NCBI GenBank assembly: GCA_020632375.1
Contig: JACKFR010000003.1
Coordinates: 1,546-65,545 of the forward strand
Direction: 5' to 3'
From: Candidatus Nomurabacteria bacterium
Lineage (GTDB): Bacteria; Patescibacteriota; Dojkabacteria; SC72; JAHDCA01
DNA length: 64,000 nt
Below, one piece after another: positions 33,201 through 46,549 of the stretch (positions within the stretch are counted from its first letter, which is position 1; the number at the start of each line of letters is the position of its first letter). A program made the position numbers and the translations under genes. The notes under the pieces are model-generated. The model saw nothing but the letters and a program-made list of their open reading frames with translations. It had not been told where the DNA came from and ran no database searches.

Positions 33201-33283
33201 CGGGAATCACTTTTTGCCTTCTCGAAAAGAAAGTCAAATATCGACGATAGGGCATCTTCATATTCTTTCTGTCTACCTGCCAT
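30230..33283 (-). CDS. giant membrane protein: ~740-aa signal-less helical N-domain, TM bundle, C-terminal M23/LAS-type peptidase
   Basis: No N-terminal signal. Hydrophobic block is GIAVAGPLGTVLVWIVTDVVV...LGGIMLLFFILTMCGGWGF. The C-terminus FSHAKMGTFAVDV...VAPTDGRVL...GAHLHLD fits the LAS-family H..D / HxH pattern. Confidence 0.6.
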   Translation of the reverse strand: MAGRQKEYEDALSSIFDFLFEKAKSDSRPLRPVRPTGLSPTDDVAAAMAALAAAPSNYLTGPLLDSLNATLGDEALIKIFPDIIDTRLNPASDNSAGRFRVRGKELTKFMQDPNAYVEKVFKGAEEERKWARIGGGGGILDNAIAGAWAKRSGLPMSEVIKVMTSSKEDISASNQSQAVEMVASNAALSASLNGAIANDPKAIRKASRAISKAIGKGGKFDVAGFFSSQGSYRDLILNQFEAGEADILKRAAQGKPLKPEETAILPALQARFNQKMTAYPNVNAKRGEIISELQSKGFTATESQQIAQSFEDTITASRKGSYTVDGMLNSFGFRSIHQEQLFLKAQLAEQRGDMAAAKKYAKAANVIDIFNRIRNPQAFGAIDYKSAYSRIDAKIAEANAKGWGTAYVNDLKTIKSELEKVEAKNTEYRANLNKMGDEIYWRPTFSAGLPRSDDRKMIQKAANLELDSEIRRLERLRQDQGSAFSRVNTFRLEHLYHLKNRGLHQVPGTNMRLLAANMTLLYRSRGDMTVSSFMSGLFTGALYFGGSPISPAAPGGVAVKYRSKDKSGNPEIKSAAGFLVMPRDDRLMRGLGPLNPAWMALANVYYVTPGSLLKTFAWNGEAFLYMAEMRRRAMLRSFFKTVDRNALDTYLQANPIKGLKGFKTPDDYTKFAENYIEIFDALQGTPFDDVAKKMLRRQGTVDRFAKIHQVFSAPQTVYSNLMKKLLADNRVAAGFRKMIESGLSALSKNPVWRAKVNQFMAKSIGLLELIEVGVRLALEGLGIAVAGPLGTVLVWIVTDVVVKVLWKVAKPFYVLGGNALLGGIMLLFFILTMCGGWGFSLINSVNPHRGQPPVVGGGGYLEDGSSSPIIASAPQDAICPITVGARCMQGPFGRFSHAKMGTFAVDVSSGTWVAPTDGRVLHAAVDVTCEWDPGKSRGGEVLFQDSSGNTYRLFHVRPVASVGPVTQGSVVATMQGGLPPSKCWSGAHLHLDTKSGGGWTNSESWYNDLNCNIHCPR

Positions 33284-33301
33284 CTTGATTTATGAACTTT
33301 A

Positions 33302-34762
33302 TTAAGCGAATGCCGAACCGAATATCGGTAGCTTACCAAATGCACCTTTCGCCGCACCTTTGAACGCCTCGGCAGAGCCTTTACCACCTGCAAGAGGTAT
33401 AAAGTCGTCCAACATTTTAGGAACTTCTGCTGCAACGTAAAACATATAAACAGTAATTGCTGCTTTTGCTATTCCTGCAACAATCCCCGATGCGGTAGCT
33501 GGTGCAGTTGCAAGATTCCCCCCGGCAAGACCTGTCGGAAAACCAAAAGTTACCGGACTATTAAAAATATACAGCCCCAGATTTACAAAAAAGAATGCAA
33601 GGGGAAAGGTCAAAACGTTTCTTACAATCCTCTTAAACCAGTCACCACTCATTTTTGACTGACCAGGAATTACTCCAATTGCAATAATCAGCGGCGCAAG
33701 GCCCGTATCGATAATTATCCCAATATAAGCTTTAAGAAGAGTAAACCAAACTTTAATTGATGCTGTTGCAACGATACCCACAACCAAAAGCGCAATCAAA
33801 AGCCCAAGAACGCCGACAATAGCGACACCTGCTGCTCCTGCGATCCCGGCACTAAGCATTAAACCACCAACAATACTCATAATCAAACCTGCTACGCCGG
33901 AAATACCAACTCCCTTAAACCAGTCTAGTCCAAGAATAGCTGCTTTAAAGATTGAAAACGGCCCATCAACGAGGATTCCACTTGCAGGGTTTGAAAGGCC
34001 GAGGATAGATGCTGCGACATTTACAAGCATCGCGCCAAGATTCATTACCAAACCTACTATTGCAAAGCTCATTGTGACAAGAATGAGGCCAAATACTACA
34101 CTTGGGATTGTATTAAGCACAGTGACAGCCATTTGTCCGCCAATCTTGTGGCGGAACATTATCATGAAGCCGGCTACAATTAAGGCCACGACGAAAAGGA
34201 TATACGCTATTACACTAGTCGACTGCCACAATGTATCTATGCCTACAGAGGTAAGATACGCATATCCATCCTGAGCGTACACTGAAGTGTCTGAAGTTTT
34301 ATTAGCACCCGGAACCCACTGTGCGTACATATGCTCATACACATTTTCTGTTGGTGGGTTATACAGCAAGGCTGTCATATTGGAATCTATAAGAGTAACA
34401 AGCCCAGTTTTTACTTGCGGGTTAATATCAGGATCATTCTGAAGTGCTTCGTAGTTACTATATGCCTCCGGCAAAACGGCTTGTAAAACTGCGTCCAAGC
34501 CACCGACTATTTGAGTAGTTGAAATATTTCCAGCATCAAGACCTGGGTCTCCGGTGAGCTTATCGCTTTTTTGGTTCTCTGCTTGAAAAGTCGCAGTGGG
34601 ATCAAGTGTCGCCGGAGGCAAAGTGTCTTCTTGTGCGTAAACGCTAAGCGAGTTAAAAGTAATAAACAAGACAAAAACATACAAGAAAAATCTCCTTAAA
34701 TTTTTCTTGTTCTTTATTATCTCCGAAACAGATTTCACTCCTTCATATGTAGTCAGTATCAT
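33302..34762 (-). CDS. Gly/Ala-rich polytopic membrane protein with VirB6/TrbL-like topology
   Basis: Signal/TM, then a ~150-aa extracytoplasmic segment, then at least 6 Gly-rich TM helices (e.g. GVAGLIMSIVGGLMLSAGIAGAAGVAIVGVLGLLIALLVVGIV). Family assignment is inference only. Confidence 0.45.
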   Translation of the reverse strand: MILTTYEGVKSVSEIIKNKKNLRRFFLYVFVLFITFNSLSVYAQEDTLPPATLDPTATFQAENQKSDKLTGDPGLDAGNISTTQIVGGLDAVLQAVLPEAYSNYEALQNDPDINPQVKTGLVTLIDSNMTALLYNPPTENVYEHMYAQWVPGANKTSDTSVYAQDGYAYLTSVGIDTLWQSTSVIAYILFVVALIVAGFMIMFRHKIGGQMAVTVLNTIPSVVFGLILVTMSFAIVGLVMNLGAMLVNVAASILGLSNPASGILVDGPFSIFKAAILGLDWFKGVGISGVAGLIMSIVGGLMLSAGIAGAAGVAIVGVLGLLIALLVVGIVATASIKVWFTLLKAYIGIIIDTGLAPLIIAIGVIPGQSKMSGDWFKRIVRNVLTFPLAFFFVNLGLYIFNSPVTFGFPTGLAGGNLATAPATASGIVAGIAKAAITVYMFYVAAEVPKMLDDFIPLAGGKGSAEAFKGAAKGAFGKLPIFGSAFA

Positions 34763-34785
34763 TTCTTCCGAATAGTTAAATTAAT

Positions 34786-36267
34786 TTATAAACAACCACC
34801 TGCATTCTGACAGTTTGCCTGATACACAACATTATTAAACCACTCGTCAAATGAGACTAATTGGTTCGGTCCGTTTTCTGCAGCATTTCTTTCATACTCA
34901 GCTTTATACACGGACATATCCCATAGGCAAGGTATATCTATAACTTTTGTATAGTTAACTCTTATCTGACAAGATGTTTTTACATAGAAAGGTGTCGCTC
35001 GAGGCTCAGAAGAGCTGTCTGGCAAACCACTAATCTTATGCTCATCATCTCCAGGTACATCATTAATATTCCTAATTGTATCAGAAAGCTTTATCCCACA
35101 CTGGCCATCTTTGCAATCATATGAAGATCCATTCAGGGCATCAATCTTTACACCAAAAATAGTCGTAGCCTGGCAATTAGGAGATGAGGGGTTTGTAGTA
35201 CATTCGGCTGCATTTTGTGCAGAGACTGTAATTGCTTTGGCAAAATCAGAAACACTTCTCTTGCTTAAGCAGCCAACATAGTGACTTGCTTGAATTTCCG
35301 GAACAGTTGTAAGATTTACCGAAGTCGCAGAACAGATATCTCCGCTATAATTTCTTGTATACGACACTGAGTTTGGTGAGTAAGTTGCACCTAAGTACCC
35401 ACCAGACCCTGCAGGAGTGTTACTCGCAGAGGTATTACAATTTTCATCTCGCTGCGGATCGCAGTCTATTTGGAAACTCACGGTATTCTTATCATTACAG
35501 CCCTCACCACCATCAACACATGCGTTGGGACGGTAGCTTGATTTAACATCTGAAGAGAATAGATTTTCAGCATCTTGTGCATCACCTGGCCCATAATAAC
35601 CCAACGGCGAAAGCCAGCTCTGACTATAATCAGGATTATCTTGAGCCTGAAGCTTTGACCCGAAAAGGTCTCCGATCGCTGGGTAAAAGTAGTACTCTAC
35701 GCTTGTATGTTTTGTAGAAGCAATTTCACGTCTGTCTTTAAAGTATTTTTCTGCTTCATTAAGGGTCCTTCCACCTAATGCAATTTTTTCACTCATGCCA
35801 TTTATAAGCCCCCCCGGATAAGTAACTTTCCACAACTCAAGAACAACATTATTTCGTATGGTAACGGATCCGTCCGCATTTTTACTCGCAGCAGAATTAA
35901 CACCAATACTATATTCAGCTGATCCGGTTACACACACTGGTTGAAGTTCATACCTACGTCCATCATTACACCCCGTAGGGCTGAAGTCTATCTGAGGAGA
36001 AGTCGGACTAACATTTGCTTGTAACACCTCTCCGCTTGAACTAGCTAACTCAGATACAGGTCGTGGATCCAATGCAATAAGATCTGAGGATGACGAGCGT
36101 ATAGAACTATTTGCAGATAGATCATTTGGCTGAGCAATAACAGTGGAGTCTTGTTTCAGATACCAAACACCGGCAACTAGCAGGCAGGCCAAAAAGAGAA
36201 AGGCCGTCGCTGCTACTTTATTTTTTATTTCGGGGCTGGTTTTGTAGAATCTAGAAGGTACTAACAT
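34786..36267 (-). CDS. N-anchored secreted protein with 16 extracytoplasmic Cys
   Basis: N-terminal TM AATAFLFLACLLVAGVWYL. Cys counted by hand, in pairs such as CVDGGEGC, CDPQRDENC, CKDGQC and CQNAGGC. Confidence 0.6.
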   Translation of the reverse strand: MLVPSRFYKTSPEIKNKVAATAFLFLACLLVAGVWYLKQDSTVIAQPNDLSANSSIRSSSSDLIALDPRPVSELASSSGEVLQANVSPTSPQIDFSPTGCNDGRRYELQPVCVTGSAEYSIGVNSAASKNADGSVTIRNNVVLELWKVTYPGGLINGMSEKIALGGRTLNEAEKYFKDRREIASTKHTSVEYYFYPAIGDLFGSKLQAQDNPDYSQSWLSPLGYYGPGDAQDAENLFSSDVKSSYRPNACVDGGEGCNDKNTVSFQIDCDPQRDENCNTSASNTPAGSGGYLGATYSPNSVSYTRNYSGDICSATSVNLTTVPEIQASHYVGCLSKRSVSDFAKAITVSAQNAAECTTNPSSPNCQATTIFGVKIDALNGSSYDCKDGQCGIKLSDTIRNINDVPGDDEHKISGLPDSSSEPRATPFYVKTSCQIRVNYTKVIDIPCLWDMSVYKAEYERNAAENGPNQLVSFDEWFNNVVYQANCQNAGGCL

Positions 36268-36354: not shown

Positions 36355-38388
36355 TTATATTGATGAAGCCATTCCTTTCTTCTCTCGATACTCGTTTTTC
36401 CGAACTAATCGTATGCCGATAAAAATTGCAATAATCCCTGCGCCAGTACCAATGAATAGACTCGATGAGTCCGCAGTTTTTGGTGTCGTAGAACCTGAAG
36501 GCAAGTATGTGTCTCCTACTGTGGGGCCACCTCCGCCGACTCCAACAGTCGCAATCTGTGAGCTAGAGATATTATAGTCGCTAAGCAAATTGACTCTTTG
36601 GTAATCACTTACATCTTCAGGAGGGGTGATTTCAATAGCAAGACTAAGGTTATCGAAATCAGTTGTTTTTTTAGTATCTGTAGTCGAATCTGCATAGGTG
36701 ACTGTTGACGCAGTCACTTCATCGTTATCACTGTATGAATAATATTCAGAACCGTCTCCTGGTCTTAGATCGCCGACACTTGCAATCCAAGCACCACTGG
36801 CATCAGGTACGACAGCGGCGTAACCAGATTTACCTTGCGAGCCGGAATTATCTTTATCTGCAAGCTGCAACATGACAACAGCATCTGTGTAATCGTCCAA
36901 TCCAGTTATATTCCCTGCAACCGTGACAAAAGGAGGAGGAGAATCAAGAGTCGCAAATGTCGTAAGAGTAAAAGGAGATCCAGAATTTTTGTAAATTTCA
37001 GACCCAGAGTAGACTTCATAGAAGTATGTCGTTTCTGGTGTCAGGTCATCAACTTCAATAATGTGACTATAGTACTTCCCTTTCTCAACAAGGCTATCGC
37101 GAATATCAATAGCTTCATCGTTTAAAGTTGTTTGGACTGTCCCGTATTTAACATATCCTTCAACAGGTGAATCAGAGAGCCAGACAACCGAAAACCCCGT
37201 ATCAGTATGGTTTGCAAGAGTCAATGAATCGGCTCCAGTAGTGACATCGGGTGTTGTTTTAGTTGTCTGAGCGCCTAAAACAAGGTTTTTCCAATTTATA
37301 TCCAACGTAATAAGGAATTCTCTTGATGCTGGATCGAATGTTGGAACCGCAGGCTCAGGAGTCTGGCTTGTCGTTCCGCTGGTCGTAGAACCGGTTGTGC
37401 CTGTGGTGGTACCTGATGTCCCACTAGTAGTACCAGATCCCGTTGTTGTACTGCCTGAAGTACCAGAACCAGTTGTCCCACTTGTCGTCCCAGATCCGGT
37501 CGTTCCGCTTCCAGTTGACCCGCTTCCGGAGGTACTGCCGGTTGTACCCATTGTCCCGCTTGTTCCTGATGTCCCGCCTGTTGTAGTACCAGGTGAACTG
37601 GCAATTACTTCAGTAATCTTCGATTGAGATGGAAGCTCAACAAAAGCCTGAATTCCTGTATCCACAGTTAAGTCAACCGACTCTTTTAACTCTCCGCTAT
37701 CATCAAAGACATCAGAGTAAGTGCCTGTTTCTACGGCTCCTTTATCATCGGCGCCTTGCACAATCACGGTAACTTCAGTATCCGATGAAACAGAGACAGA
37801 GCTGCTTCCATCGGTTGATTTAAGAGATGAAAGATCTACAATCCAGTTTCCTGTAGCACTAGGTACCGCGGAGACTGGGAGTGATTCTTCGGGTGAACTC
37901 ACAAAAACAAATATAATTGCATCATCTGCACTTAAGCCTTTTGCCTTGCCGTAAACAGGTTTGGGAACCGGAGTTTCGTCTGTAAGCGGTGCAGTATGAA
38001 ACTTAAAGTTTTTATTGCCTTCTGAAGTAAATTCTTCACCATCAGAAACGATCTTAAAAGTGTAGTCAGTATCGGGCTCAAGAGAGACCAACTCGACAAA
38101 ATGAGTTTTACGAGTATCTGCTCCTCTAGTGTCTATAACTGGGCTGCTGTCTTTTTTATCTTTGACCACGATTATACTGCCGTTTGTTTTTTTCCCAGTA
38201 ACCCAGGTTACGGTAAGAGAGTTTGTTGTAAGGTTGCTGATTGCGACTTCTTGCGGTGTTTTATCTTGCCCAGCACTGCTAAGCCACTGGGTTGCAAAAT
38301 ATATTGCAACGACAGTCACGGGGATCGCTATTACCAAAAGTATTGAGGTAACTAAGTACCTTCTTTTTTGTCTTGGGGTTATATACAT
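36355..38388 (-). CDS. surface protein with two FN3/PAP-N-like modules, S/T/G linker, N- and C-terminal TM anchors
   Basis: LTTNSLTVTWVTGKKTNG...THFVELVSLEPDTDYTFKI and TDTGFSVVWLSDSPVEGYVKYG...YYSHIIEVDDLTPETTYFYEV. The C-terminal LPSGSTTPKTADSSSLFIGTGAGIIAIFIGIRLVRKNEYREKK is a hydrophobic stretch plus basic tail. Confidence 0.65.
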   Translation of the reverse strand: MYITPRQKRRYLVTSILLVIAIPVTVVAIYFATQWLSSAGQDKTPQEVAISNLTTNSLTVTWVTGKKTNGSIIVVKDKKDSSPVIDTRGADTRKTHFVELVSLEPDTDYTFKIVSDGEEFTSEGNKNFKFHTAPLTDETPVPKPVYGKAKGLSADDAIIFVFVSSPEESLPVSAVPSATGNWIVDLSSLKSTDGSSSVSVSSDTEVTVIVQGADDKGAVETGTYSDVFDDSGELKESVDLTVDTGIQAFVELPSQSKITEVIASSPGTTTGGTSGTSGTMGTTGSTSGSGSTGSGTTGSGTTSGTTGSGTSGSTTTGSGTTSGTSGTTTGTTGSTTSGTTSQTPEPAVPTFDPASREFLITLDINWKNLVLGAQTTKTTPDVTTGADSLTLANHTDTGFSVVWLSDSPVEGYVKYGTVQTTLNDEAIDIRDSLVEKGKYYSHIIEVDDLTPETTYFYEVYSGSEIYKNSGSPFTLTTFATLDSPPPFVTVAGNITGLDDYTDAVVMLQLADKDNSGSQGKSGYAAVVPDASGAWIASVGDLRPGDGSEYYSYSDNDEVTASTVTYADSTTDTKKTTDFDNLSLAIEITPPEDVSDYQRVNLLSDYNISSSQIATVGVGGGGPTVGDTYLPSGSTTPKTADSSSLFIGTGAGIIAIFIGIRLVRKNEYREKKGMASSI
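37296..37627. repeat. low-complexity Gly/Ser/Thr-coding tract (imperfect short repeats)
   Basis: Encodes GTTTGGTSGTSGTMGTTGSTSGSGSTGSGTTGSGTTSGTTGSGTSGSTTTGSGTTSGTSGTTTGTTGSTTSGTTS. It generates spurious ORFs in other frames. Confidence 0.8.
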
Positions 38389-38572: not shown

Positions 38573-39208
38573 CTAGTCTAGATCCTCAGATAAATATGAT
38601 CCCAAAGGAGAATACGTTCTACGCATGACGAACCCATAACCCTCCTCTATCACAAAACGATGTCTCGCTAATTGTTCAAGAGTACCCTCATCAGCATTCG
38701 AGATAACAAGTCTCTGAACTACAGATTGACCTGTACTTTCTGCAAGAGCATGAAGAACTTCACCCATAACACGCAAGGTTAAATCTCCTCTAAGAGATAA
38801 ACAGTCACCTTCTTCTGATGTAAAATCATCAATAGTATATGGAGTCTGGCCGGAATCCTCGCCATATTTTAAGACAAACCCTGCGGGTCCTGCAAGTAAT
38901 ACCCTCTTACTAGGATCACTCTGTTCCCAAGTAAACGAGACCGTAAAGGGTGAAAGAAACTGCTGTCTAACTGGCCATACATTAATTTTATCACCATATT
39001 CACGGACAGCGACGTCGATATCTGCAAAATTTTTAGGAGCCTCCTCAAACGGCTTACCCATGTTTGGTCTAAATTGCTGACAAGATGTTCCATTTCTTTT
39101 CGCAGACTCAATTGCATGTAGAAGAGAACCCCAACCACGCTGCTTTGCTTCGAGTACACGAACCTGATTCGGAGTGGCTGTGTCAAGACTACTGATTTGT
39201 AATTTCAT
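38573..39208 (-). CDS. hypothetical cytoplasmic protein (ORFan)
   Basis: 211-aa ORF with no TM or signal and no recognised motif. Flanked by non-coding spacers on both sides. Confidence 0.5.
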   Translation of the reverse strand: MKLQISSLDTATPNQVRVLEAKQRGWGSLLHAIESAKRNGTSCQQFRPNMGKPFEEAPKNFADIDVAVREYGDKINVWPVRQQFLSPFTVSFTWEQSDPSKRVLLAGPAGFVLKYGEDSGQTPYTIDDFTSEEGDCLSLRGDLTLRVMGEVLHALAESTGQSVVQRLVISNADEGTLEQLARHRFVIEEGYGFVMRRTYSPLGSYLSEDLD

Positions 39209-39331
39209 ATCGATACTATTAAAATTAATGTACGATTACACTACTATAGGATGTCCCCATCAATCCTCTTGCCATTTAGGCTCACAGAATAGATAATGTA
39301 CCGAGTAGCTGAATTTCATTAAATATTTCAA

Positions 39332-39928
39332 GTGCGCAAAAAGAAGCATAAAGAAACAATTCAAGAAGTCGAGATACGTCTCCCGAGTCTGTTGAGTGCA
39401 TACCTTACCCCTGTTGCGATAATTATAACCACGATTATTGTTTGTTTCGCGATCTTGCTCGCAACACGAGGAAGTAGCCTACTAATCGCCAGCGCTGATT
39501 CAAATGATTCAGTTGCAGGTGCACTAAGTTATGCCGGCAGAGGTAAAGCTCTCGGAGATTTCGAAACATTTACAGAGTATGACAACGAGCTATGTACCGA
39601 AGATGGCAAGCCGGTAGTATTTATGTTTTCGGCGACATGGTGTCCCCACTGTCAATGGGTAGGAGATACTTTTAATTCATGGGCAAAAGAGCAGAAAGAT
39701 GTAGTCGTTTACAGATACGAAGTAGACACAAATGAAAACGTTCTGACTGGTGAAAAAGGAATTCCTGAAGAGCATAAGAAAATTTACGACGAATTCAATC
39801 CCAATCAGACTATTCCGACTTTTGTATTTGGATGCAAATACGCCAGAGTTGGTAATGGATATGAGAATGAAAACGATCTGCAAAAAGAGGTAGACACCTT
39901 TAATGACGTTGTAAGCAAGATTCTATAG
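39332..39928 (+). CDS. membrane-anchored thioredoxin-fold thiol:disulfide oxidoreductase (CPHC active site)
   Basis: N-terminal TM LTPVAIIITTIIVCFAILLA. FMFSATWCPHCQW is a Trx-type WCxxC motif, and TIPTFVF is the cis-Pro loop. Confidence 0.75.
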   Translation: MRKKKHKETIQEVEIRLPSLLSAYLTPVAIIITTIIVCFAILLATRGSSLLIASADSNDSVAGALSYAGRGKALGDFETFTEYDNELCTEDGKPVVFMFSATWCPHCQWVGDTFNSWAKEQKDVVVYRYEVDTNENVLTGEKGIPEEHKKIYDEFNPNQTIPTFVFGCKYARVGNGYENENDLQKEVDTFNDVVSKIL

Positions 39929-39950: not shown

Positions 39951-40268
39951 CTACTCTTCGTCTATACTGTTACTGTTTGTAAACCGGTCAACTATGCTTC
40001 CAAGCCGAAGTATTGGCTTTCGGACTATATTATTCACGTGATCTACAGTTGTAGCTACACCCTTGATCGTATTTTTTACATCTGCAACTGCCCCGGCGAT
40101 TTCATCAAGCAGAGAGTTTGCTGTTGCTACTGTTTTACGAGTCTCAGCTACTGTAGCTGTAGCTTCTTTTAAAAGCATTGCGAAGTAATAGAGAATCAAA
40201 CATAGCATCAGTGTCAATGCACTGACAATCACCATCCAGAATTCAGCCGGTATTGAGTTTGTGTCCAT
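39951..40268 (-). CDS. small N-anchored coiled-coil protein (DUF948-like, tentative)
   Basis: TM WMVIVSALTLMLCLILYYFAML followed by an Ala/Thr/Val-rich helical segment. Family call is from memory only. Confidence 0.4.
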   Translation of the reverse strand: MDTNSIPAEFWMVIVSALTLMLCLILYYFAMLLKEATATVAETRKTVATANSLLDEIAGAVADVKNTIKGVATTVDHVNNIVRKPILRLGSIVDRFTNSNSIDEE

Positions 40269-40311: not shown

Positions 40312-43300
40312 TTATAAACCAGGCTCCCACTTACCTTGTCCCGAAATAACTCTAACAAAGTAAGCCGTTTTCTGAGTATTATCAAGCGGAAAATCAAACC
40401 CATAAACATCACTCGTGCCATCGTCATTAATTGTTTTTTGGAGACCTTCATATCGAGCCTTCTCAGTTGGCCACCGTGTTACATTATCTGCAGTTAAATC
40501 TATTTCTGTATATGAATTAATCGCATCGATGAAGCTTTCCGCAGTATACTCCTTCGCATTTGAACCATAGATGCCTACAAGATTCCATCCGGAATTAAAG
40601 TATATTGGAGCAAAATCGCCAACAGAGTCAAACTTGATCTCTTGCCCTCTGATTTCCACAGTCGTATTGGCGGATGCCTTGACTATATACCCAGTACCCG
40701 GAACGATCTGAAAATCGTTTGCATCATAATTATCTCCGTTAGAGCCAACGATCTGCCATCGCGAGTCATACTTTGCTATTGAGAGTACGTTGCCATCTGA
40801 TTGTGAATTTAATTCTAAAAGAAACTGTGATGCAGTATTAAACTTAGGCATAACTAGCGGAACGGCGATGAAATTATATCCTTTCTTTAGATCGTATTTT
40901 AATAATGACTCTGACCGAACAAGATTTAGCTCAGTTGGATCTTGAGTTAGAATAATATCCCCCTCATCATATACAAGACTGCCATTTACATCAATAAAGA
41001 GCTTCACAGGGGTGGATATATCATCTACTATTGCTTCGTATTCTTTACCTTTGAATGTCACCGTATAAACTCCTTCGTTTGGGATATAGTAAACACCTGC
41101 CGATGGGTCAAAAATCACCGTATTGCTCTTGAGTGGTGTCGCTTCATCAGCAGATACTTCTGTGATTAAATTCACTGTAGATTCCCCCATCACATCACTT
41201 CCGTCCCGAACACATCGGTAAGTTTGATATACATAACTTAAGGCTCCATTTTCATCGCACCCATATGAACCCGGGGTATCACACGCAGTTCCAATTTCAG
41301 CATTGGATAAAGAATTCGGGTCACATCCAGCCTCTCCGACAAAACAGGTCATCTCTCCAGTAGCATTACAGCTACCAAAATCGCCACATGCAGTTTCACA
41401 ATCTCCTGAAGTCTTATACGTTAACTCAAAAATTCTTAGATCATTTTTAGGAACACACACGTAATAATAAAATGCCGTTTGAAAGGTATTTTGATTAGAG
41501 TAACTTAAAAGGTTACAAGAACCACATGCAGGATCGCTACTTGTCCTTCCACCACATGTAGAATCATTTCCATACCCTTTCTGGCTCCACAAAGCGCCAT
41601 CAGGTAGTAACTCTTCATCAGAAAAACCCTCACTGTCAGAGCTTGTATCAACAGGTAATAAAGCAGGGCTAAGAGCAATAGCCCTGGTTCCGTCAATTTC
41701 AGGTTGAAGCGGATTGTCTTCTATTGCCGACTCGATTACCTGAGATTCCGGAGAAGGATAATTAGTACATGACCCCGTAGTACTACAGTACTGAGTAGAT
41801 GGGTTGCAAACATTAGTGCAAAGATTCCCGCAGGCATCGAAGCCACATTCTAGTAATCCGCCATCATCTTTACATCTCATTGAATCAGGTACGGTATTAC
41901 AGTTCCCGATTGCAATAGCTCCCGTGTCATCAACAGGTGTACCTATACTGCCACACATTTTAGGACTGGTGGAAGGAGGTATATCTGGGTCGGCAGTACA
42001 ATCACACCCCCATCCCCCATCGTTAGGATTTGGGCCGGTTATACATTTACCTAATCCACAATCTTTTCCTGTGCAGTCATTCTCAATCCCAGTATTTTCT
42101 TGTGAAGCAGAAACTGACATATCTGATCCAGGCGCAGGTTCACTTGGTAAGAAAGAGCTCTTTTCGTCTACACCACCGCAAGTGTCCACCTTACAAGGAT
42201 TTGTGCTTGTAATATTACAGTAATTTGTAATACAAAAGCCTGGCTGTAGCTGACCATTAACCATTTGATTTGTACAACTCCAGTAACTGCAGTCAGGGAG
42301 GTTATCCGCAGCATAAGCCTCAGATACTAAATTATTTCCACGAAGTGATGACCATAGAGTGTAAACAGAGGTGCTGATATCTTCAGAAAGCACTAAATCC
42401 CTCATTGGTGCATCTTGGGATGTTGAGTTCTCGAAAACTCCAACTGCACCACCGGCACCGGCTTCCACATACACATCTTGTACCATACCGTCGTGAACTC
42501 TATCTAAAGCAACTCCGTCTATATTGTAGATATTGGACTGATCAAGATACCAAGTCCCATTACTTGAGGTAACAGCGGAGTAAAACTGAGAGATTAAGCC
42601 ATCCCCGTAATCAAGCTGAATGTAAACAACCGCATCACCGGAGCCTTTACTATGGTCATTACTATCAAAGATCCTACCGTATGTAGGATTTGGAACGTCA
42701 ATAGAGTCCGGTTCTTCGAACGTTGTAAAACTATCAGAACCAAATTGAGCAGATTTTATTTTTTTAAAGAAAAATCCATCTCCAACCATAAAGTAGTAGC
42801 TCTTTTTAGACTCCAAACCGAGAAGAGTCACATGATGTACATAATATTTTTCCTTCCCAATAACTTTTACCTCGGTATTTATATCTGTAAAAGAAATCTC
42901 CCCTTGGTCATTCTCATAAACCTTTCTCCTATTCTCCTCTGCGAGAGAAAGTTCTGCAGTCTTTACATCACGATCATCATAAGCAATATTTGAACCTGTG
43001 GTTGAGATCATAACCGGTAAGGAAAACTTTTTTTCTCTGTATATAGCAACACCAGGAGATTTATCTTTAGTAACCCATGAAACTGTTGCAGAGTTACTTG
43101 TAATATTTGTTATCATAAGCTTCTCGGGTTTTACGGTAAACCAGCTGTATGTAAATGCCACAAGAACGCCCAATACTAAAAAAAATAATGCCAAAAGGAG
43201 GAACTTTTTAAGGTTTATACTTCCGAGATTTAGCTTAAACCTTTTAGGAGAAGTAGATTTAACAGAGGGTGACTCTGACCGTGAAGACGATGAGTCTTGG

Positions 43301-43332
43301 GATTTTTTTTTAACAATCTGTGAACCATCCAT
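40312..43332 (-). CDS. giant modular surface protein A: TM - FN3/PAP-N-like module - Cys-rich array - Ca-loop - conserved C-terminal module
   Basis: TM FLLLALFFLVLGVLVAF; ITSNSATVSWVTKDK...DDRDV...YYVHHVTLLGLESKKSYYFMVG; Cys-rich from about aa 347; IDVNGSLVYDEGD. The C-terminus GYNFIAVPL...GWNLVGIYGSNAKEYTAESFIDAIN...DVYGFDFP...KWEPGL is shared with B and C. Confidence 0.7.
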   Translation of the reverse strand: MDGSQIVKKKSQDSSSSRSESPSVKSTSPKRFKLNLGSINLKKFLLLALFFLVLGVLVAFTYSWFTVKPEKLMITNITSNSATVSWVTKDKSPGVAIYREKKFSLPVMISTTGSNIAYDDRDVKTAELSLAEENRRKVYENDQGEISFTDINTEVKVIGKEKYYVHHVTLLGLESKKSYYFMVGDGFFFKKIKSAQFGSDSFTTFEEPDSIDVPNPTYGRIFDSNDHSKGSGDAVVYIQLDYGDGLISQFYSAVTSSNGTWYLDQSNIYNIDGVALDRVHDGMVQDVYVEAGAGGAVGVFENSTSQDAPMRDLVLSEDISTSVYTLWSSLRGNNLVSEAYAADNLPDCSYWSCTNQMVNGQLQPGFCITNYCNITSTNPCKVDTCGGVDEKSSFLPSEPAPGSDMSVSASQENTGIENDCTGKDCGLGKCITGPNPNDGGWGCDCTADPDIPPSTSPKMCGSIGTPVDDTGAIAIGNCNTVPDSMRCKDDGGLLECGFDACGNLCTNVCNPSTQYCSTTGSCTNYPSPESQVIESAIEDNPLQPEIDGTRAIALSPALLPVDTSSDSEGFSDEELLPDGALWSQKGYGNDSTCGGRTSSDPACGSCNLLSYSNQNTFQTAFYYYVCVPKNDLRIFELTYKTSGDCETACGDFGSCNATGEMTCFVGEAGCDPNSLSNAEIGTACDTPGSYGCDENGALSYVYQTYRCVRDGSDVMGESTVNLITEVSADEATPLKSNTVIFDPSAGVYYIPNEGVYTVTFKGKEYEAIVDDISTPVKLFIDVNGSLVYDEGDIILTQDPTELNLVRSESLLKYDLKKGYNFIAVPLVMPKFNTASQFLLELNSQSDGNVLSIAKYDSRWQIVGSNGDNYDANDFQIVPGTGYIVKASANTTVEIRGQEIKFDSVGDFAPIYFNSGWNLVGIYGSNAKEYTAESFIDAINSYTEIDLTADNVTRWPTEKARYEGLQKTINDDGTSDVYGFDFPLDNTQKTAYFVRVISGQGKWEPGL

Positions 43333-43411: not shown

Positions 43412-46400
43412 TTATTTTGCGGGTGTCCATAAACCACTACCATCGTCAACTTTCAAAAAGTATCCGCTAGTAACATTTATCGGAAAATCAAACCCATAAA
43501 CATCTGCGACACCATTATCTGAGGTTTCTTTTTGCAGTCCCTCATATTTTGCTTTGCTCGAATCCCATTCAGTCACATTAACAGCAGTAAATCCTTCTTG
43601 ACCATTTACAGAGTCAATCAAACTCTCAGCAGTATAAGCTTTTGATGTACCATGAACGGCCACTAGATTCCACCCTTGCATGAGCGATACCGGAACTGGT
43701 TCAATAATCCCTTTCCCAGAAAGAGTCACAACCAAATCTTGTTTAGATTTGAGAACATAACCACGTCCAGGAATTATCTGGAAGTCTTGGCTACCGTAAG
43801 TGTCTCCGTTACGATTCCCGATTACTTCCCATTTACCTGAGTCAAATCGTGCGATTGAATAAAAGGCATCACTGTAATCGGCATTAAGCGAAGTGAGGAG
43901 ATCACTTGCCATATTAGGCTCTGACGGATCTACAAAATCAAATGAGACCAAGTTAAATCCAGCAGATATTTCATAAGTTCTTGTTGTAGACTCTTTTGAA
44001 AGCTCAAGATCAACTACATCTGCGACATTAACATCGGTGCCCTCATCATATTCTCCGTTTCCATTCTCATCTATATAAAGTAGTGTTTCAGCATTTTTCT
44101 GTAAAACTTCAAAACAGTATTTTTCTCCATTATAAATCGTGCAATAAATACCTGAGTCTTCAAAAATCACTGTTTCACCAGATGGAGAAAATGAAAACTT
44201 ACTTGTTGAAGCACCTAAAACAGCTCGGCCAGAGTTTAGCGATGTCGTAGTAGGGCAACTCGTCCTTTGATTACCACGACATGTAAGACCAGTCGCACCA
44301 CTTGTTTCTTCACACGTATGCCCTTCTTTATCACAAACTGTCCCTATGTCCTGGCTTTCGAGATCCCAGCATCCACCTTCACTAATCTGTTTACACCACT
44401 CGCCATCGTTAAAAATTTCTTCTGTTCCGTAGGCGTCACACCAACATCCTGCACTGTTACCGCAACACTGCTGTCCTCTTGATATAGTGATCCGGCCTGG
44501 GGCTTCAAAAAGGCCTTGCTTGCAGACTTGACCAATCCTTTTGTCAACATAACTCCCATCACACTGACATTTAAGACCGGTCCCATCATCTTGGCAAATT
44601 TCACCTTGTGGCACTAGCTGTATCCAATGATAATCTCCCAGCCCATTTGCAAAAACTCTATCTGTACACAAGTAGTCTCTACCGTCATATTGAGCGACAA
44701 CCCCACGGCAATCATTGCAAACTTTCGCAGGATCTGCAGCACATGCACTTCCTCCCCATCCTTCAGTTGCTTCACTTGTTCCTTCAGGAAGAGTATTTTT
44801 CTTGGTACCATCAGGATTGACCTCATAGTGGTAGAAATTGTATCTGGAGTCCAGCTGACCGCTCCCAGGCGAGACACAAAGATACTTGCTGTCAACGACA
44901 TCGTGAGCACAAACAAGTTCCGAATAGCCTGGACAGGCTTGTCCTAAATTATCCGAAGTGCAAATCCCTTCTGCGTAATATGCAAGTAGCCTACCACTTA
45001 GACCGGTGACCCGAATCGTTCCGTCTGCTAATACCTGGGTGTCACCATTGCCAGATAATGGACCGCTTGTCCCAGATGTAGCGGCACCCGTTGTTCCACT
45101 GCTACCGTTGATCCCGGGATTAACAGTTACACCGGTGCCGGATCCGGAGGAAGTAGTCCCTCCAGTACTAGTTACGATCCCACAAGCACTCGAGGAGTCT
45201 TCCCCGCATCTATAATTCCCATCACTACATCCAAAGCAGCCTAAGCTTCCACCGCCATCACATCCGCCCCGATTAGGCCATCTACTACTTGCCGCTGATA
45301 ACGGACAGTAAGAGCCGGCATCGCATAAATCTCCAGTCGATTTTACTAAATTCTGCGAAATAATATTCCCACAGTCGGGGTCTTCATAAGATGAGCTAGA
45401 AGCAGGTGCCGATACCTCTTGAACCGACCCTCCCCCACCGACACCGCCGGACGAAGGACAGAGTGATGGATTGTCAGGCTCGTTACAATTATTTGTACTC
45501 ACAGCAACTTTACAAGCTTCACTTGCCCAATGTGACTGTGCACCACTCCCCCAAACTTGAACAAAACCCTCTTGGATATTTCCTCTGTTTTCACAGTGAG
45601 TTGCCCCGTTTGAACATGTTACACTCCACCTCCCATAACAAGGACTTGCATAGGCAACTGGGACTAATGATGAAGTTGAAGAAGAGCCTGACTCGCTGAC
45701 AACAATATCTTCAGCAGGAGAATCGACATTTCGAGAGACTTCCTTGTCTGCTGAGCCGTAGCTGGTAATAACTTCAATCGAGTCAATCATGCTCTCACTT
45801 GGTTCTGTATATTTGCTTAAAAATAACTCAGTCCCACCGATCACTCTTGCAGAACTTAGATCGATGTACCAAGAGCCATTGTCCCGGACGACTGCAGAAA
45901 GAGTTGTTGATTCGGCACTGATGCTATCATCTTTAAGAGAGACATAAACTAATGCATCGTTTTCATAAGTATCACTGCCTCCATTTACTATCTTCCCATA
46001 TGCAGGATCGATCTGGGGAAGAGTTGCTGCATCGGAGAGGGCATATGTCTCGAATGTACTCGCACCAGAGACTCCATTTTTAGATGCCCAAAGCAGAGAA
46101 CCGCTGCCGACATAAAATGAGTACTCTTTTGAAGGGTCTAGGTTTTTGACAGTAATGTGGTGTGTATAGTATTTACCTGTTTTTTCGACTTTTACATCTT
46201 CAGATAATATTTCTGAGGTGACTGTTCCGTTCGCTGAGGCTTCAGCCTGTACTTTCTCGGCAGCTTGCAATTCAGCAGCAGCAACATCTCTGTCGTCATA
46301 ACTTACATTGTCATTTTTAATCACGAAAGGAAGTATTAAATTCTTTCCCTCTTTCACATAAACAACCCCGTCTGTCTTAGACTTAGTAACCCATGATAAA

Positions 46401-46549
46401 GACGCTGAATTTGAAGTGATGTTTGTAACCCGAACTTCTTTGGGAGACAAGCGCATATAAACAAGGATCGCAATAACAGAGAGAAAGAGAACAATAAAAA
46501 AGAGAAGGCTGTATCTCAGCAGCTTCTGCTTTGAAAGAAGTATAGACAT
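43412..46549 (-). CDS. giant modular surface protein B (paralog of A)
   Basis: TM SLLFFIVLFLSVIAILVYM; ITSNSASLSWVTKSK...DDRDV...YYTHHITVKNLDPSKEYSFYVG; long Cys-rich region plus a G/S/T tract; IDENGNGEYDEGTD. The C-terminus is GFNLVSFDF...GWNLVAVHGTSKAYTAESLIDSVN...DVYGFDFP...LWTPAK. Confidence 0.7.
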   Translation of the reverse strand: MSILLSKQKLLRYSLLFFIVLFLSVIAILVYMRLSPKEVRVTNITSNSASLSWVTKSKTDGVVYVKEGKNLILPFVIKNDNVSYDDRDVAAAELQAAEKVQAEASANGTVTSEILSEDVKVEKTGKYYTHHITVKNLDPSKEYSFYVGSGSLLWASKNGVSGASTFETYALSDAATLPQIDPAYGKIVNGGSDTYENDALVYVSLKDDSISAESTTLSAVVRDNGSWYIDLSSARVIGGTELFLSKYTEPSESMIDSIEVITSYGSADKEVSRNVDSPAEDIVVSESGSSSTSSLVPVAYASPCYGRWSVTCSNGATHCENRGNIQEGFVQVWGSGAQSHWASEACKVAVSTNNCNEPDNPSLCPSSGGVGGGGSVQEVSAPASSSSYEDPDCGNIISQNLVKSTGDLCDAGSYCPLSAASSRWPNRGGCDGGGSLGCFGCSDGNYRCGEDSSSACGIVTSTGGTTSSGSGTGVTVNPGINGSSGTTGAATSGTSGPLSGNGDTQVLADGTIRVTGLSGRLLAYYAEGICTSDNLGQACPGYSELVCAHDVVDSKYLCVSPGSGQLDSRYNFYHYEVNPDGTKKNTLPEGTSEATEGWGGSACAADPAKVCNDCRGVVAQYDGRDYLCTDRVFANGLGDYHWIQLVPQGEICQDDGTGLKCQCDGSYVDKRIGQVCKQGLFEAPGRITISRGQQCCGNSAGCWCDAYGTEEIFNDGEWCKQISEGGCWDLESQDIGTVCDKEGHTCEETSGATGLTCRGNQRTSCPTTTSLNSGRAVLGASTSKFSFSPSGETVIFEDSGIYCTIYNGEKYCFEVLQKNAETLLYIDENGNGEYDEGTDVNVADVVDLELSKESTTRTYEISAGFNLVSFDFVDPSEPNMASDLLTSLNADYSDAFYSIARFDSGKWEVIGNRNGDTYGSQDFQIIPGRGYVLKSKQDLVVTLSGKGIIEPVPVSLMQGWNLVAVHGTSKAYTAESLIDSVNGQEGFTAVNVTEWDSSKAKYEGLQKETSDNGVADVYGFDFPINVTSGYFLKVDDGSGLWTPAK
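45040..45185. repeat. Gly/Ser/Thr low-complexity tract inside protein B gene
   Basis: Encodes TSTGGTTSSGSGTGVTVNPGINGSSGTTGAATSGTSGPLSGNG. Boundaries are approximate. Confidence 0.6.

Follow-up and report, generated by a model that had tools for sequence, protein, structure and literature searches.

A surface-anchored thioredoxin of CPR bacteria and DPANN archaea as a probable general oxidative foldase

The stand-alone surface thioredoxin (Trx) described here belongs to a CPR/DPANN family and is probably a general oxidative foldase, with its Cys-rich neighbors as likely users that do not hold it exclusively. The gene lies in the 64-kb stretch of DNA that was analyzed (the window). Its predicted product is a single-domain thiol:disulfide oxidoreductase of the thioredoxin fold, anchored in type II orientation with the N-terminus inside and the catalytic domain outside, and it has a W-C-P-H-C active site of the PDI/DsbA type. 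As a general foldase on the outer membrane face, the enzyme would make disulfides in newly emerging Sec-exported proteins, rearrange them, or do both. Heavy, non-exclusive users would be the giant surface proteins A and B and probably a protein with 16 extracytoplasmic Cys, and the component that re-oxidizes the enzyme would be encoded outside the window. We infer the direction of electron flow, the clients and the partner; the direction proposed (oxidase, isomerase or reductase) is read from the motif and the gene context.

The gene and its product

The Trx ORF begins with a GTG start codon and has a 198 aa product. An NCBI protein, the 'thioredoxin family protein' of Candidatus Nomurabacteria bacterium, has the same sequence as this product (100% identity), and homologs number hundreds, so the ORF is a real gene and not a chance reading frame. 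Genes on either side are on the opposite strand and the Trx gene is apparently monocistronic. The sigma-70-like hexamer pair upstream of the start is a positional candidate only, because such sites are no more numerous in the region than in shuffles.

Table 1. Features of the Trx gene and its neighborhood.
Feature	Position	Strand	Basis
Trx gene, 198-aa membrane-anchored thioredoxin-fold oxidoreductase	39332..39928	+	ORF, Pfam, AF2, NCBI match
Predicted single N-terminal TM helix, about aa 20-45	39389..39466	+	AF2 and sequence
Cys88 codon, first Cys of the covarying extra pair	39593..39595	+	Alignment
Active site W103-C104-P105-H106-C107	39638..39652	+	Sequence, alignment
Family-specific acidic insert, aa 132-145, D-T-N-E-N-V-L-T-G-E-K-G-I-P	39725..39766	+	Alignment, AF2
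cis-Pro loop T160-I161-P162-T163-F164	39809..39823	+	Sequence, alignment
Cys168 codon, partner of Cys88	39833..39835	+	Alignment
Sigma-70-like hexamer pair TTGCCA-17-GATAAT, 10/12	39269..39297	+	35 bp 5' of Trx start
Secreted or membrane-anchored 493-aa protein	34786..36267	-	ORF, Cys count
FN3 surface protein, 0 Cys	36355..38388	-	Pfam
211-aa ORF between the FN3 and Trx genes	38573..39208	-	ORF
Small DUF948/YtxH-like protein with one TM, gene convergent with Trx	39951..40268	-	Pfam
Giant surface protein A, 1006 aa, 32 Cys	40312..43332	-	ORF, Pfam, Cys count
Giant surface protein B, 1045 aa, 38 Cys, paralog of A	43412..46549	-	ORF, Pfam, Cys count

The original prediction of one N-terminal TM helix followed by a Trx fold with WCPHCQW and a cis-Pro TIPTF (aa 160-164) in a 198-aa protein was borne out by the ORF, Pfam and AF2. 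In the AF2 model, which has a mean pLDDT of 89, the TM helix at residues 19-46 precedes a Trx fold at residues 73-197. Since the N-terminus before the helix is basic (MRKKKHK), the predicted topology is N-in/C-out with the catalytic domain outside. WCPHCQW occupies aa 103-109 (nt 39638-39658), and W103, C104, H106 and C107 are invariant in a 51-sequence alignment (A1). In the cis-Pro loop I161, P162 and T163 show no variation across the family alignment. The acidic insert is placed between beta3 and alpha3 and has invariant residues at D132, E141 and P145.

The Trx domain has an extra pair of cysteines. C88 and C168 are found together in 78/80 aligned sequences, while the other two sequences have neither; read by eye, both are apparently replaced in fusions to giant proteins. 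Covariation and the Trx topology suggest that C88-C168 is a structural disulfide that stabilizes the domain. The pair fits a bond that could form only outside the cytoplasm, which argues for an extracytoplasmic location.

Classification of the Trx protein

Pfam Thioredoxin (PF00085) matches the protein at 33.7 bits (cutoff 23.5), and the AF2 model has the superfamily layout, with the CxxC directly before helix 105-119 and I161-P162 before strand 163-166. The Pfam match, together with an NCBI name that says only 'thioredoxin family protein', would suit an ordinary cytoplasmic thioredoxin whose start was mis-called and whose TM helix is an artifact. That reading is effectively refuted. The score for the thioredoxin equivalog TIGR01068 is 27.9 bits vs a cutoff of 96.8, the motif is WCPHC instead of the WCGPC of classical thioredoxins, and a hydrophobic N-terminal anchor or lipobox is conserved family-wide. 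The covarying extra Cys pair indicates an oxidizing compartment, and the fusion partners in the family are extracytoplasmic modules.

WCPHC is an oxidizing active site of the CPHC type, and the basic N-terminus and TM anchor predict an extracytoplasmic location. The protein is nonetheless not of the DsbA/MdbA type, because the DsbA-type alpha-helical cap (about 65-80 aa, beta3 to alpha2) is absent from the AF2 model. The stretch from beta3 to the cis-Pro strand contains a single helix (146-155) and a loop of 15 aa, and 55 aa separate the CxxC from the cis-Pro. In Pfam neither DSBA (PF01323) nor Thioredoxin_4 (PF13462) matches at E<=0.01. DsbA structures matched by Foldseek had an rmsd of 6-8 Å in alignments that use the TM helix. 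When the family profile was compared with sequences of solved structures, PDI-family proteins were best (TXNDC5, yeast PDI; E 2e-8) and thioredoxins were next (2e-6). The score for TIGR01126 pdi_dom is 21.4 bits vs a cutoff of 107.2.

Several features recall extracytoplasmic reductases of the TlpA/ResA/CcmG/Etrx type. An enzyme of this type would receive electrons via a CcdA/DsbD-like membrane protein, and would keep exported Cys reduced (e.g. lipobox or sortase Cys, metal sites) or supply a surface repair enzyme. AhpC-TSA (19.9 vs 26) and the NCBIfam DsbE models (16.5-20.3 bits vs 123-359) match weakly and below their cutoffs, Etrx1 and TlpA are among the generic Trx-fold Foldseek matches, and the N-terminal beta-hairpin and central insert resemble this reductive class, which counts against a foldase. 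Reducing thioredoxins have Ile in front of the cis-Pro, DsbA has Val and DsbC/PDI has Thr; here the residue is Ile161, which counts against an oxidase or isomerase. We nevertheless consider a reductase unlikely. The near-invariant C-[PG]-H-C of the family is an oxidase/PDI motif and not that of the reductive TlpA class, although rare members carry CEPC, CPRC or CAQC. The fusions, gene contexts and candidate partners that bear on this choice are described below.

A WCxHC thioredoxin family of CPR bacteria and DPANN archaea

The protein belongs to a distinct, sharply defined, previously unnamed and uncharacterized family, most of whose members come from CPR/Patescibacteria and DPANN archaea. Among 1.84 billion representatives, matches at E<=1e-30 to the A1 profile, which includes the window protein, amount to at least 248 clusters at 50% identity. 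At 80 GTDB loci the lineage was Patescibacteria or DPANN in almost every case. The core signature of A1 comprises C88, G-K-P 92-94, W-C-x-H-C 103-107, D132, E141, P145, N156, I-P-T 161-163, G-C 167-168, Y170 and R172, together with a TM or lipid anchor at the N-terminus. The window protein carries all invariant A1 columns and is 45-72% identical to members labeled Dojkabacteria and Patescibacteria. Within the almost invariant W-C-x-H-C, CPHC is dominant and some members have CGHC, the PDI motif. Members are anchored by a TM helix or, in 18/90, by a possible lipobox. Three 314-aa homologs (P0048, P0106, P0116) were considered as VKOR-Trx fusions and rejected; their additional region is a soluble extracellular domain at the N-terminus.

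Literature searches on disulfide systems of DPANN or Dojkabacteria turned up no work on this family in particular. The general link had been thought not obviously described, but two papers precede it. Méheust et al. 2019 (PMC6744442) described a CPR-enriched membrane thiol-disulfide oxidoreductase with an adjacent VKOR, the 'MdbA-like' fam000318, with a membrane anchor and a CxxC. Anantharaman et al. 2016 (PMC4736985) noted Cys-rich extracellular proteins and a disulfide-bond protein in one CPR lineage.

Four known systems were compared with the family. MdbA/DsbA of Actinomyces oris and Corynebacterium diphtheriae, which is re-oxidized by VKOR, and fam000318 by its description, have the same N-terminal anchor, outward Trx-fold domain, CPHC site and proposed task, which is to fold surface proteins oxidatively in a monoderm-type envelope; VKOR, a candidate partner here too, is found near archaeal members of the WCxHC family. 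Unlike MdbA/DsbA, the window protein lacks the cap and a match to the DSBA or Thioredoxin_4 models. The a-type domains of eukaryotic PDI, ERp57 and TXNDC5/ERp46 are plain capless Trx folds that are fused to or associated with other foldase modules, and their APWCGHCK resembles the family's [ST]-W-C-[GP]-H-C-x-W, with an exact WCGHC in some members. In contrast to PDI, the WCxHC proteins are prokaryotic, membrane- or lipid-anchored and single-domain with no b/b' substrate-binding domains, and the acidic insert and the putative extra disulfide are specific to them. TlpA, ResA, CcmG (DsbE) and pneumococcal Etrx share an anchored single extracellular Trx domain with the hairpin and central insert, but differ in the CxxC dipeptide, which is P-H or G-H in the WCxHC family, in scores that fall far below cutoffs, and in context, since genes for cytochrome c maturation, Sco/CoxB or Msr do not accompany the family. 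Finally, PrsA/SurA parvulin foldases have the same cellular location and presumably the same client pool. About 1/4 to 1/3 of family representatives are PrsA/SurA-like with a C-terminal Trx domain, whereas the window protein is a stand-alone form with no PPIase or SurA_N module.

Fusions to foldases and Cys-rich proteins

Fusions support a general role in oxidative folding, as oxidase or isomerase. In about 1/3 of family representatives the Trx domain is joined to an extracytoplasmic foldase, namely SurA_N/parvulin, FKBP or a true DsbA domain. SurA_N was found in 39/122 representatives, a PrsA/SurA-like parvulin PPIase in 31/122 and FKBP in 5/122. In three proteins (P0154, P0182, P0192) the polypeptide that carries the Trx domain also includes a genuine DsbA-like domain with a CPYC of its own, which makes the two distinct modules. 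This fusion counts against the foldase reading and argues that the Trx domain does more than duplicate a DsbA-type oxidase. Other partners are Cys-rich, including Kazal (P0151) and Dickkopf-like (P0202) modules and giant proteins with 34-88 Cys (P0161, P0164, P0179, P0171); 13/147 representatives have at least 12 Cys. Fusions to foldases and Cys-rich clients weigh against a reductase.

Genomic context

The original prediction proposed a dedicated oxidase or isomerase for the Cys-rich proteins encoded nearby, and its account of the neighborhood held. The genes for A and B, said to encode dozens of Cys each, are both convergent to the Trx gene and encode 32 and 38. Protein A consists of a TM segment, an FN3/PAP_N domain, a Cys-rich middle (aa 348-707) and a C-terminal domain shared with B, in which the Cys-rich stretch is aa 304-812. 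The gene at 34786..36267, placed within 3.1 kb, ends 3065 bp upstream of the Trx gene, and its product contains 17 Cys, of which 16 are extracytoplasmic and one belongs to the signal/TM segment.

The constant neighbors in the wider clade of the window are a Cys-free FN3 protein and the small DUF948/YtxH-like protein. The FN3 gene is a conserved, divergently transcribed upstream neighbor across the clade, and the DUF948/YtxH-like gene is kept beside the Trx gene in the 9 loci of this clade. The spot occupied by the 211-aa ORF is variable, with an integrase-containing insert in L001 and nothing in L003/L004. In L011 the ortholog of the FN3 protein has 32 Cys.

A dedicated enzyme would have co-evolved with A, B and the 16-Cys protein and would be specific to them. 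Co-conservation was found in part of the clade. L001, L003 and L004 share the gene order of Trx, small TM gene and Cys-rich giants, with Trx identities of 50-72%, but L005, L006 and L012-L014, where Trx is 45-47% identical to the window protein over the full length, keep the Trx, FN3 and DUF948-like genes with no Cys-rich giant within 10 kb. Independent adjacency to Cys-rich genes, seen in L011, Woesearchaeota (L033/L043/L081/L083), WWE3 (L037) and Aenigmarchaeota (L049), speaks for dedication, as do the giants fused to Trx; the general foldases, which are the commonest fusion partners, speak against it. So do the apparently monocistronic Trx gene, opposite in strand to the giants, and the family as a whole, in which ~85% of 88 loci lack a secreted Cys-rich ORF within 10 kb and the contexts are mostly housekeeping. 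The commonest contexts are gatC-gatA-Trx, an order found in 24 loci, and Lgt and Lit, which flank the gene in Woesearchaeota. Lgt and Lit would also suit a reductase.

Counts of genes by rank from the Trx gene show the proximity: 15/445 are secreted Cys-rich ORFs at ranks 1-3 vs 3/667 at ranks 4-12 (OR 7.7, p=3e-4). With the loci collapsed to 45 lineages, a Cys-rich ORF is <=3 genes from Trx in 8 and further away in 3, which is of modest significance (binomial p about 0.03, calculated by hand from the collapsed counts). The closeness in the window is suggestive, not exclusive. Proteins A and B are best described as probable clients and not exclusive partners, and the 16-Cys protein as a possible client.

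The oxidase or isomerase part of the original prediction is favored by the type of active site, by the foldase and Cys-rich fusions and by Cys-rich enrichment in several independent lineages including archaea. The word dedicated does not fit a broad family with housekeeping contexts and five sister loci without giants, and we regard a dedicated enzyme as decidedly unlikely. Relatives of the gene are mostly beside unrelated genes, which had been named as a sign against the prediction, but they are never beside cytochrome c maturation genes, also named, and co-occurrence with Cys-rich genes recurs. A role of this Trx in cytochrome c maturation was rejected. No ccm/ccs or msr gene adjoins Trx in the annotated loci or in the recurrent neighbor clusters of the 88 loci, which also weighs against a reductase.

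Candidate redox partners

The window was expected to hold no DsbB or VKOR, and Pfam and NCBIfam scans of its sizeable non-ribosomal ORFs agreed, with no match to VKOR, DsbB or DsbD_TM on any scanned ORF. The scanned proteins include the multi-TM products of 1269..2291, 33302..34762, 48623..50701 (DUF4153) and 51896..53041, none of which matched a partner. CcdA and ccm/ccs/sco genes were not found in the window. A narrow VKOR HMM, made from just three archaeal sequences, likewise had no match in the six-frame translation of the window. No VKOR, DsbB or MauE candidate was identified in the window or in ~45 CPR loci examined, which counts against the foldase reading.

In four Woesearchaeota loci (L033, L043, L090, L081) a VKOR gene lies 7-8 kb from Trx. 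VKOR PF07884 scored 75 bits in L033 and 65 bits in L090, and the L081 match came from the local HMM. By analogy and by proximity in these archaeal relatives, VKOR is the leading candidate for re-oxidizing the enzyme, and its presence argues against a reductase. A reductase could point to L044, where a Trx-DsbD_TM-like gene is directly upstream, but this match is the sole case in 88 loci and is below cutoff (20.7 bits vs 27.1).

Significance

Quinone synthesis is often missing in CPR bacteria. We offer, as a rather doubtful extension of the general foldase proposal, that the window protein is the stand-alone form of a 'prokaryotic PDI', a CPR/DPANN-wide, capless, surface-tethered WCxHC module repeatedly recruited beside or fused to PrsA, FKBP and DsbA foldases and Cys-rich giant adhesins. 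The module may have passed between episymbiotic bacteria and archaea, and in quinone-poor lineages, this one included, it might do without DsbB or VKOR and use another oxidant or act purely as an isomerase.

For the window itself the outcome is more modest, a sensibly annotated housekeeping-type foldase gene. CPR bacteria and DPANN archaea live on the surface of host cells and devote much of their resources to huge surface proteins, many of them Cys-rich. How such giants fold outside minimal cells is poorly understood, and the WCxHC family, common to both domains of ultra-small symbionts and distinct from DsbA/MdbA, is a concrete candidate for the disulfide catalyst. The natural fusions PrsA-Trx, FKBP-DsbA-Trx and Trx-adhesin point to the proteins with which it may work.

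The thioredoxin-fold protein of the window

The ORF for the membrane-anchored thioredoxin-fold protein (hereafter Trx) was found where the original prediction had placed it, and it contains the WCPHCQW and TIPTF motifs. An NCBI entry named 'thioredoxin family protein [Candidatus Nomurabacteria bacterium]' matches the protein at 100% identity; the nearest relatives carry Dojkabacteria or Patescibacteria labels, which makes the organism a CPR bacterium. The Pfam Thioredoxin model matched with 33.7 bits (gathering score 23.5), while Thioredoxin_2, Thioredoxin_7 and AhpC-TSA gave sub-cutoff scores in the Pfam scan.

An AlphaFold2 model (51 homologues as input; mean pLDDT 89) has a single long helix, residues 19-46, as membrane anchor, then a disordered linker and a canonical thioredoxin topology. 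The N-terminal half of the domain comprises a hairpin (73-83), a strand (93-100), a helix that begins with the CxxC (105-119) and a strand (125-130). The C-terminal half comprises a 15-residue insert, a helix (146-155), the cis-Pro strand (163-166), a strand (170-173) and a helix (183-197). Because the N-terminus, MRKKKHK, is strongly basic, the catalytic domain is predicted to face outward by the positive-inside rule.

Coordinates of Trx, its neighbours and features of related loci
Feature	Position	Strand	Description
Trx gene	39332..39928	+	GTG start, 198 aa
WCPHCQW	aa 103-109 of Trx		active site
TIPTF	aa 160-164 of Trx		cis-Pro loop
105-aa single-TM protein	39951..40268	-	downstream of Trx, convergent
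Protein A	40312..43332	-	32 Cys; downstream, convergent to Trx
Protein B	43412..46549	-	38 Cys; downstream, convergent to Trx
493-aa protein	34786..36267	-	upstream of Trx; 17 Cys, 16 beyond signal/anchor segment
Three-gene block	30230..36267	-	1017-aa, 486-aa and 493-aa proteins
FN3 surface protein	36355..38388	-	Cys-free
211-aa ORF	38573..39208	-	in FN3-Trx spacer
Third giant protein	60775..63798	-	1007 aa, 22 Cys; 14 kb away
FN3-Trx spacer of locus L001	5494..9693		~5 called genes
FN3 orthologue of locus L011	2765..4912	-	32 Cys
WWE3 locus L037	261..5618	+	two Cys-rich genes, two Trx paralogues

A capless family in CPR bacteria and DPANN archaea

Assignment to a DsbA/MdbA type was rejected, as only 55 residues with one helix separate the CxxC from the cis-Pro. 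DsbA/MdbA proteins have a helical cap in this interval whereas the Trx family is capless. Neither DSBA nor Thioredoxin_4 matched in the Pfam scan. HMM scores eliminated a thioredoxin equivalog (TIGR01068, 27.9 vs a cutoff of 96.8), a PDI domain (TIGR01126, 21 vs 107) and DsbE (16-20 bits vs cutoffs of 123-359). Foldseek against PDB returned generic Trx-fold matches only, with the best superposition on spinach Trx m (3.0 Å, 113 columns). When the family profile was compared with sequences of solved structures, the PDI family came out on top (TXNDC5, yeast PDI; E ~2e-8), followed by thioredoxins (~2e-6), a lead driven by the shared WC[GP]HC-x-[WL] context. Overall, Trx belongs to a family of its own within the thioredoxin superfamily and has a PDI/DsbA-type active site.

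The homologues group tightly together. The invariant residues in an alignment of 51 sequences, including the window protein, are C88, G92-K93-P94, W103, C104, H106, C107, D132, E141, P145, N156, I161-P162-T163, G167-C168, Y170, R172, E178, L183 and E186. WCPHC is by far the commonest CxxC, with minor variants WC[G/S/A/L]HC; three members deviate (TCPRC, KCEPC, DCAQC). Members are anchored by a TM helix or, in 18/90 cases (mostly archaeal), by a possible lipobox. When 1.84 billion cluster representatives were searched with the profile, 248 clusters scored E<=1e-30 and 429 reached E<=1e-10, beyond which the matches fall off into generic thioredoxins (1257 clusters at E<=1e-3). GTDB contigs were searched using one genome per species. 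Nearly all of the best 80 loci belong to Patescibacteria (Dojkabacteria, Buchananbacteria, WWE3, Beckwithbacteria, Saccharibacteria, Parcubacteria) or DPANN-type archaea (Woese-, Aenigm-, Pace-, Micr- and Nanoarchaeota, Diapherotrites, Iainarchaeum, Altiarchaeota). Some records bear labels such as 'uncultured Gammaproteobacteria' or 'Methanosarcinales'.

C88 and C168 are both present in 78/80 aligned sequences; the other two (L049, L089) lack both, and by eye both were apparently lost in the giant-protein fusion subfamily. C88 lies five residues ahead of the central strand and C168 in the β4-β5 turn, at the same sheet end. Since the pair covaries and sits at one end of the sheet, the natural reading is a structural C88-C168 disulfide, which would imply an oxidising, extracytoplasmic location. 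We felt that a reductive, TlpA/Etrx-like enzyme was unlikely.

Domain fusions

Fusions are the strongest guide to the function of the family. Among 122 representatives scanned against Pfam, a SurA_N-like chaperone domain was identified in 39 and a parvulin PPIase in 31, giving a PrsA/SurA-like architecture (TM, SurA_N, parvulin, Trx), and FKBP PPIase was found in 5/122. In three proteins (P0154, P0182, P0192) the CPHC Trx domain is preceded by a genuine DsbA-like domain that has a CPYC of its own; P0192 has the order FKBP-DsbA-Trx. The presence of both in one polypeptide suggests that the Trx and DsbA domains are not redundant, which leans toward an isomerase/PDI-like or relay role over a simple DsbA substitute. 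Disulfide-rich modules are fused in P0151 (Kazal) and P0202 (Dickkopf-like), and giant surface proteins in P0161 (1172 aa, 88 Cys), P0164 (55 Cys), P0179 (34 Cys) and P0171 (41 Cys); P0156 (3538 aa) and P0184 (2813 aa) are apparently repeat-rich giants with few Cys. At least 12 Cys are present in 13/147 representatives. These repeated fusions to extracytoplasmic foldases and Cys-rich clients assign the Trx domain a part in folding proteins at the cell surface.

A rhodanese domain follows Trx in several giant fusions and was confirmed by Pfam in P0161, P0164, P0179 and P0212, where the order is signal, Trx, rhodanese, TM segments and giant extracellular region. By eye, P0156 and P0184 resemble this subfamily.

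Gene neighbourhood in the window

The neighbours were as originally described, with Cys-rich A and B convergent to Trx and the 16-Cys protein upstream. All Cys of A and B are confined to a variable middle, predicted to be extracellular. The third giant shares with A and B a C-terminal domain of ~300 aa (26-27% identity), so the genome encodes a paralogous surface-protein family with variable Cys-rich middles. The FN3 protein has the N-terminal TM+FN3/PAP_N module of A and B. Its end, '...TYLPSGSTTPK...', a hydrophobic stretch and then 'RLVRKNEYREKK', resembles a sortase-type (LPXTG-like) cell-wall sorting signal.

The three-gene block encodes a 1017-aa protein whose C-terminal HxH motif is suggestive of an M23 peptidase (no Pfam match), a Cys-free 10-TM membrane protein and the 493-aa protein, whose 16 Cys are extracytoplasmic. 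It is present in L001, L003 and L004, is missing from the sister loci L005 and L006, and could have been inserted as an envelope or secretion module. The FN3-Trx spacer is an insertion spot of variable content: one ORF in the window, ~5 called genes in L001 (among them an rve-type integrase and that ORF's homologue), and none in L003 and L004.

Pfam and NCBIfam scans of the sizeable non-ribosomal ORFs of the window, with a six-frame search by a VKOR HMM of three archaeal sequences, gave no VKOR, DsbB, MauE or DsbD candidate as redox partner; the original prediction had noted the same for VKOR and DsbB. VKOR lies 7-8 kb from Trx in four Woesearchaeota loci; it was confirmed by Pfam in L033 (75 bits) and L090 (65 bits), and a local HMM also matches L043 and L081. 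In L033 and L043 it is ~7 kb downstream. A Trx-DsbD_TM-like gene, with a sub-cutoff score, is directly upstream of Trx in one Nanoarchaeota locus.

Association with Cys-rich secreted proteins

Cys-rich secreted ORFs were defined as >=300 aa with >=10 Cys, >=2% Cys and an N-terminal hydrophobic segment. They account for 15/445 genes at ranks 1-3 from Trx and 3/667 at ranks 4-12 (odds ratio 7.7, Fisher p=3e-4). With Trx domains collapsed at 70% identity, 8/45 lineages have such an ORF within three genes and 3/45 further off, where genes are 1.5 times more numerous (hand-computed binomial p ~0.03). The association is more than chance.

Independent cases were found in several lineages. In four Woesearchaeota loci (L033, L043, L081, L083) the gene divergent from Trx at 110-310 bp encodes a signal-peptide protein of 24-55 Cys, a conserved arrangement in which Lit follows. 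WWE3 L037 encodes two secreted Cys-rich proteins (548 aa, 27 Cys, papain-like by eye; 599 aa, 26 Cys) directly upstream of tandem Trx paralogues of 405 and 201 aa on the same strand. Aenigmarchaeota L049 is a further case. In L011 the Cys-free FN3 protein of the window has an orthologue that gained four tandem CxPxCxGxxCGxxGCGGxCGxC repeats (32 Cys). Similar modules fill Cys-rich neighbours in Woesearchaeota, which suggests a mobile Cys-rich cassette common to CPR and DPANN.

Gene context in relatives

L001/L002 (72% Trx identity), L003 and L004 (50%) share the gene order of the window: FN3 gene <- / -> Trx / <- small TM gene <- 1-2 giant Cys-rich genes (20-52 Cys) <- DUF4153. This synteny favours a Trx dedicated to the adjacent Cys-rich exoproteins, as originally proposed. 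The next-outer relatives, L005, L006 (45-47%) and L012-L014, argue against it: they retain Trx, the divergent Cys-free FN3 protein and a convergent small DUF948-like protein, but lack both a Cys-rich giant within 10 kb and the upstream 1017-aa/10-TM/16-Cys block. Their backbone is EF-G, TPR, G5/3D, UvrD, SH3, FN3, Trx. A dedicated role appears quite improbable.

Among more distant relatives, 24 Patescibacteria loci read ligA-gatC-gatA-Trx; a few genes before this run come pilin genes and a prepilin peptidase. In nine loci of the gatC-gatA-Trx clade (L008, L009, L021, L026, L031, L035, L061, L062, L073) the order of the type IV pilin and prepilin peptidase genes, 5-8 kb upstream, is conserved. 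Woesearchaeota Trx is flanked by Lgt in 12 loci and by the lipoprotein transacylase Lit in 14, Lgt occurring at loci other than the four above; the presence of such bacterial-type lipoprotein maturation genes beside a lipobox-bearing Trx in archaea merits attention. Cytochrome c maturation genes were absent from every Trx locus examined. Given stable neighbours (FN3, gatCA, Lgt/Lit) without constant giants, Trx looks like a housekeeping-type envelope gene, stable within lineages, beside which Cys-rich giants come and go.

Relation to published work

The original prediction held the link to be not obviously described. The general idea of a CPR disulfide catalyst for exported proteins is already published. 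Méheust et al. (bioRxiv 10.1101/335083; Nat Commun 2019, PMC6744442) described a CPR-enriched, membrane-anchored, MdbA-like thiol-disulfide oxidoreductase family, with VKOR adjacent in 88/750 genomes having both, and proposed a role in pilin folding. The pilin genes upstream of gatC-gatA-Trx are compatible with that idea, with ligA and gatCA intervening. Anantharaman et al. 2016 (PMC4736985) reported a CPR lineage with Cys-rich extracellular proteins and a disulfide-bond protein, and a 2026 preprint added MauE as another DsbB-like oxidase while stressing remaining gaps. No description of this particular capless family, its occurrence across CPR and DPANN, its fusions or the Cys-rich-gene enrichment was found in the literature searched.

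The original observation holds up, and its interpretation is supported in part. Trx is probably a general surface-tethered, PDI-like oxidoreductase that would serve exported proteins as oxidase/isomerase, the neighbouring giants being major, non-exclusive clients. The gene of the window is in itself unsurprising; the family merits naming and testing.
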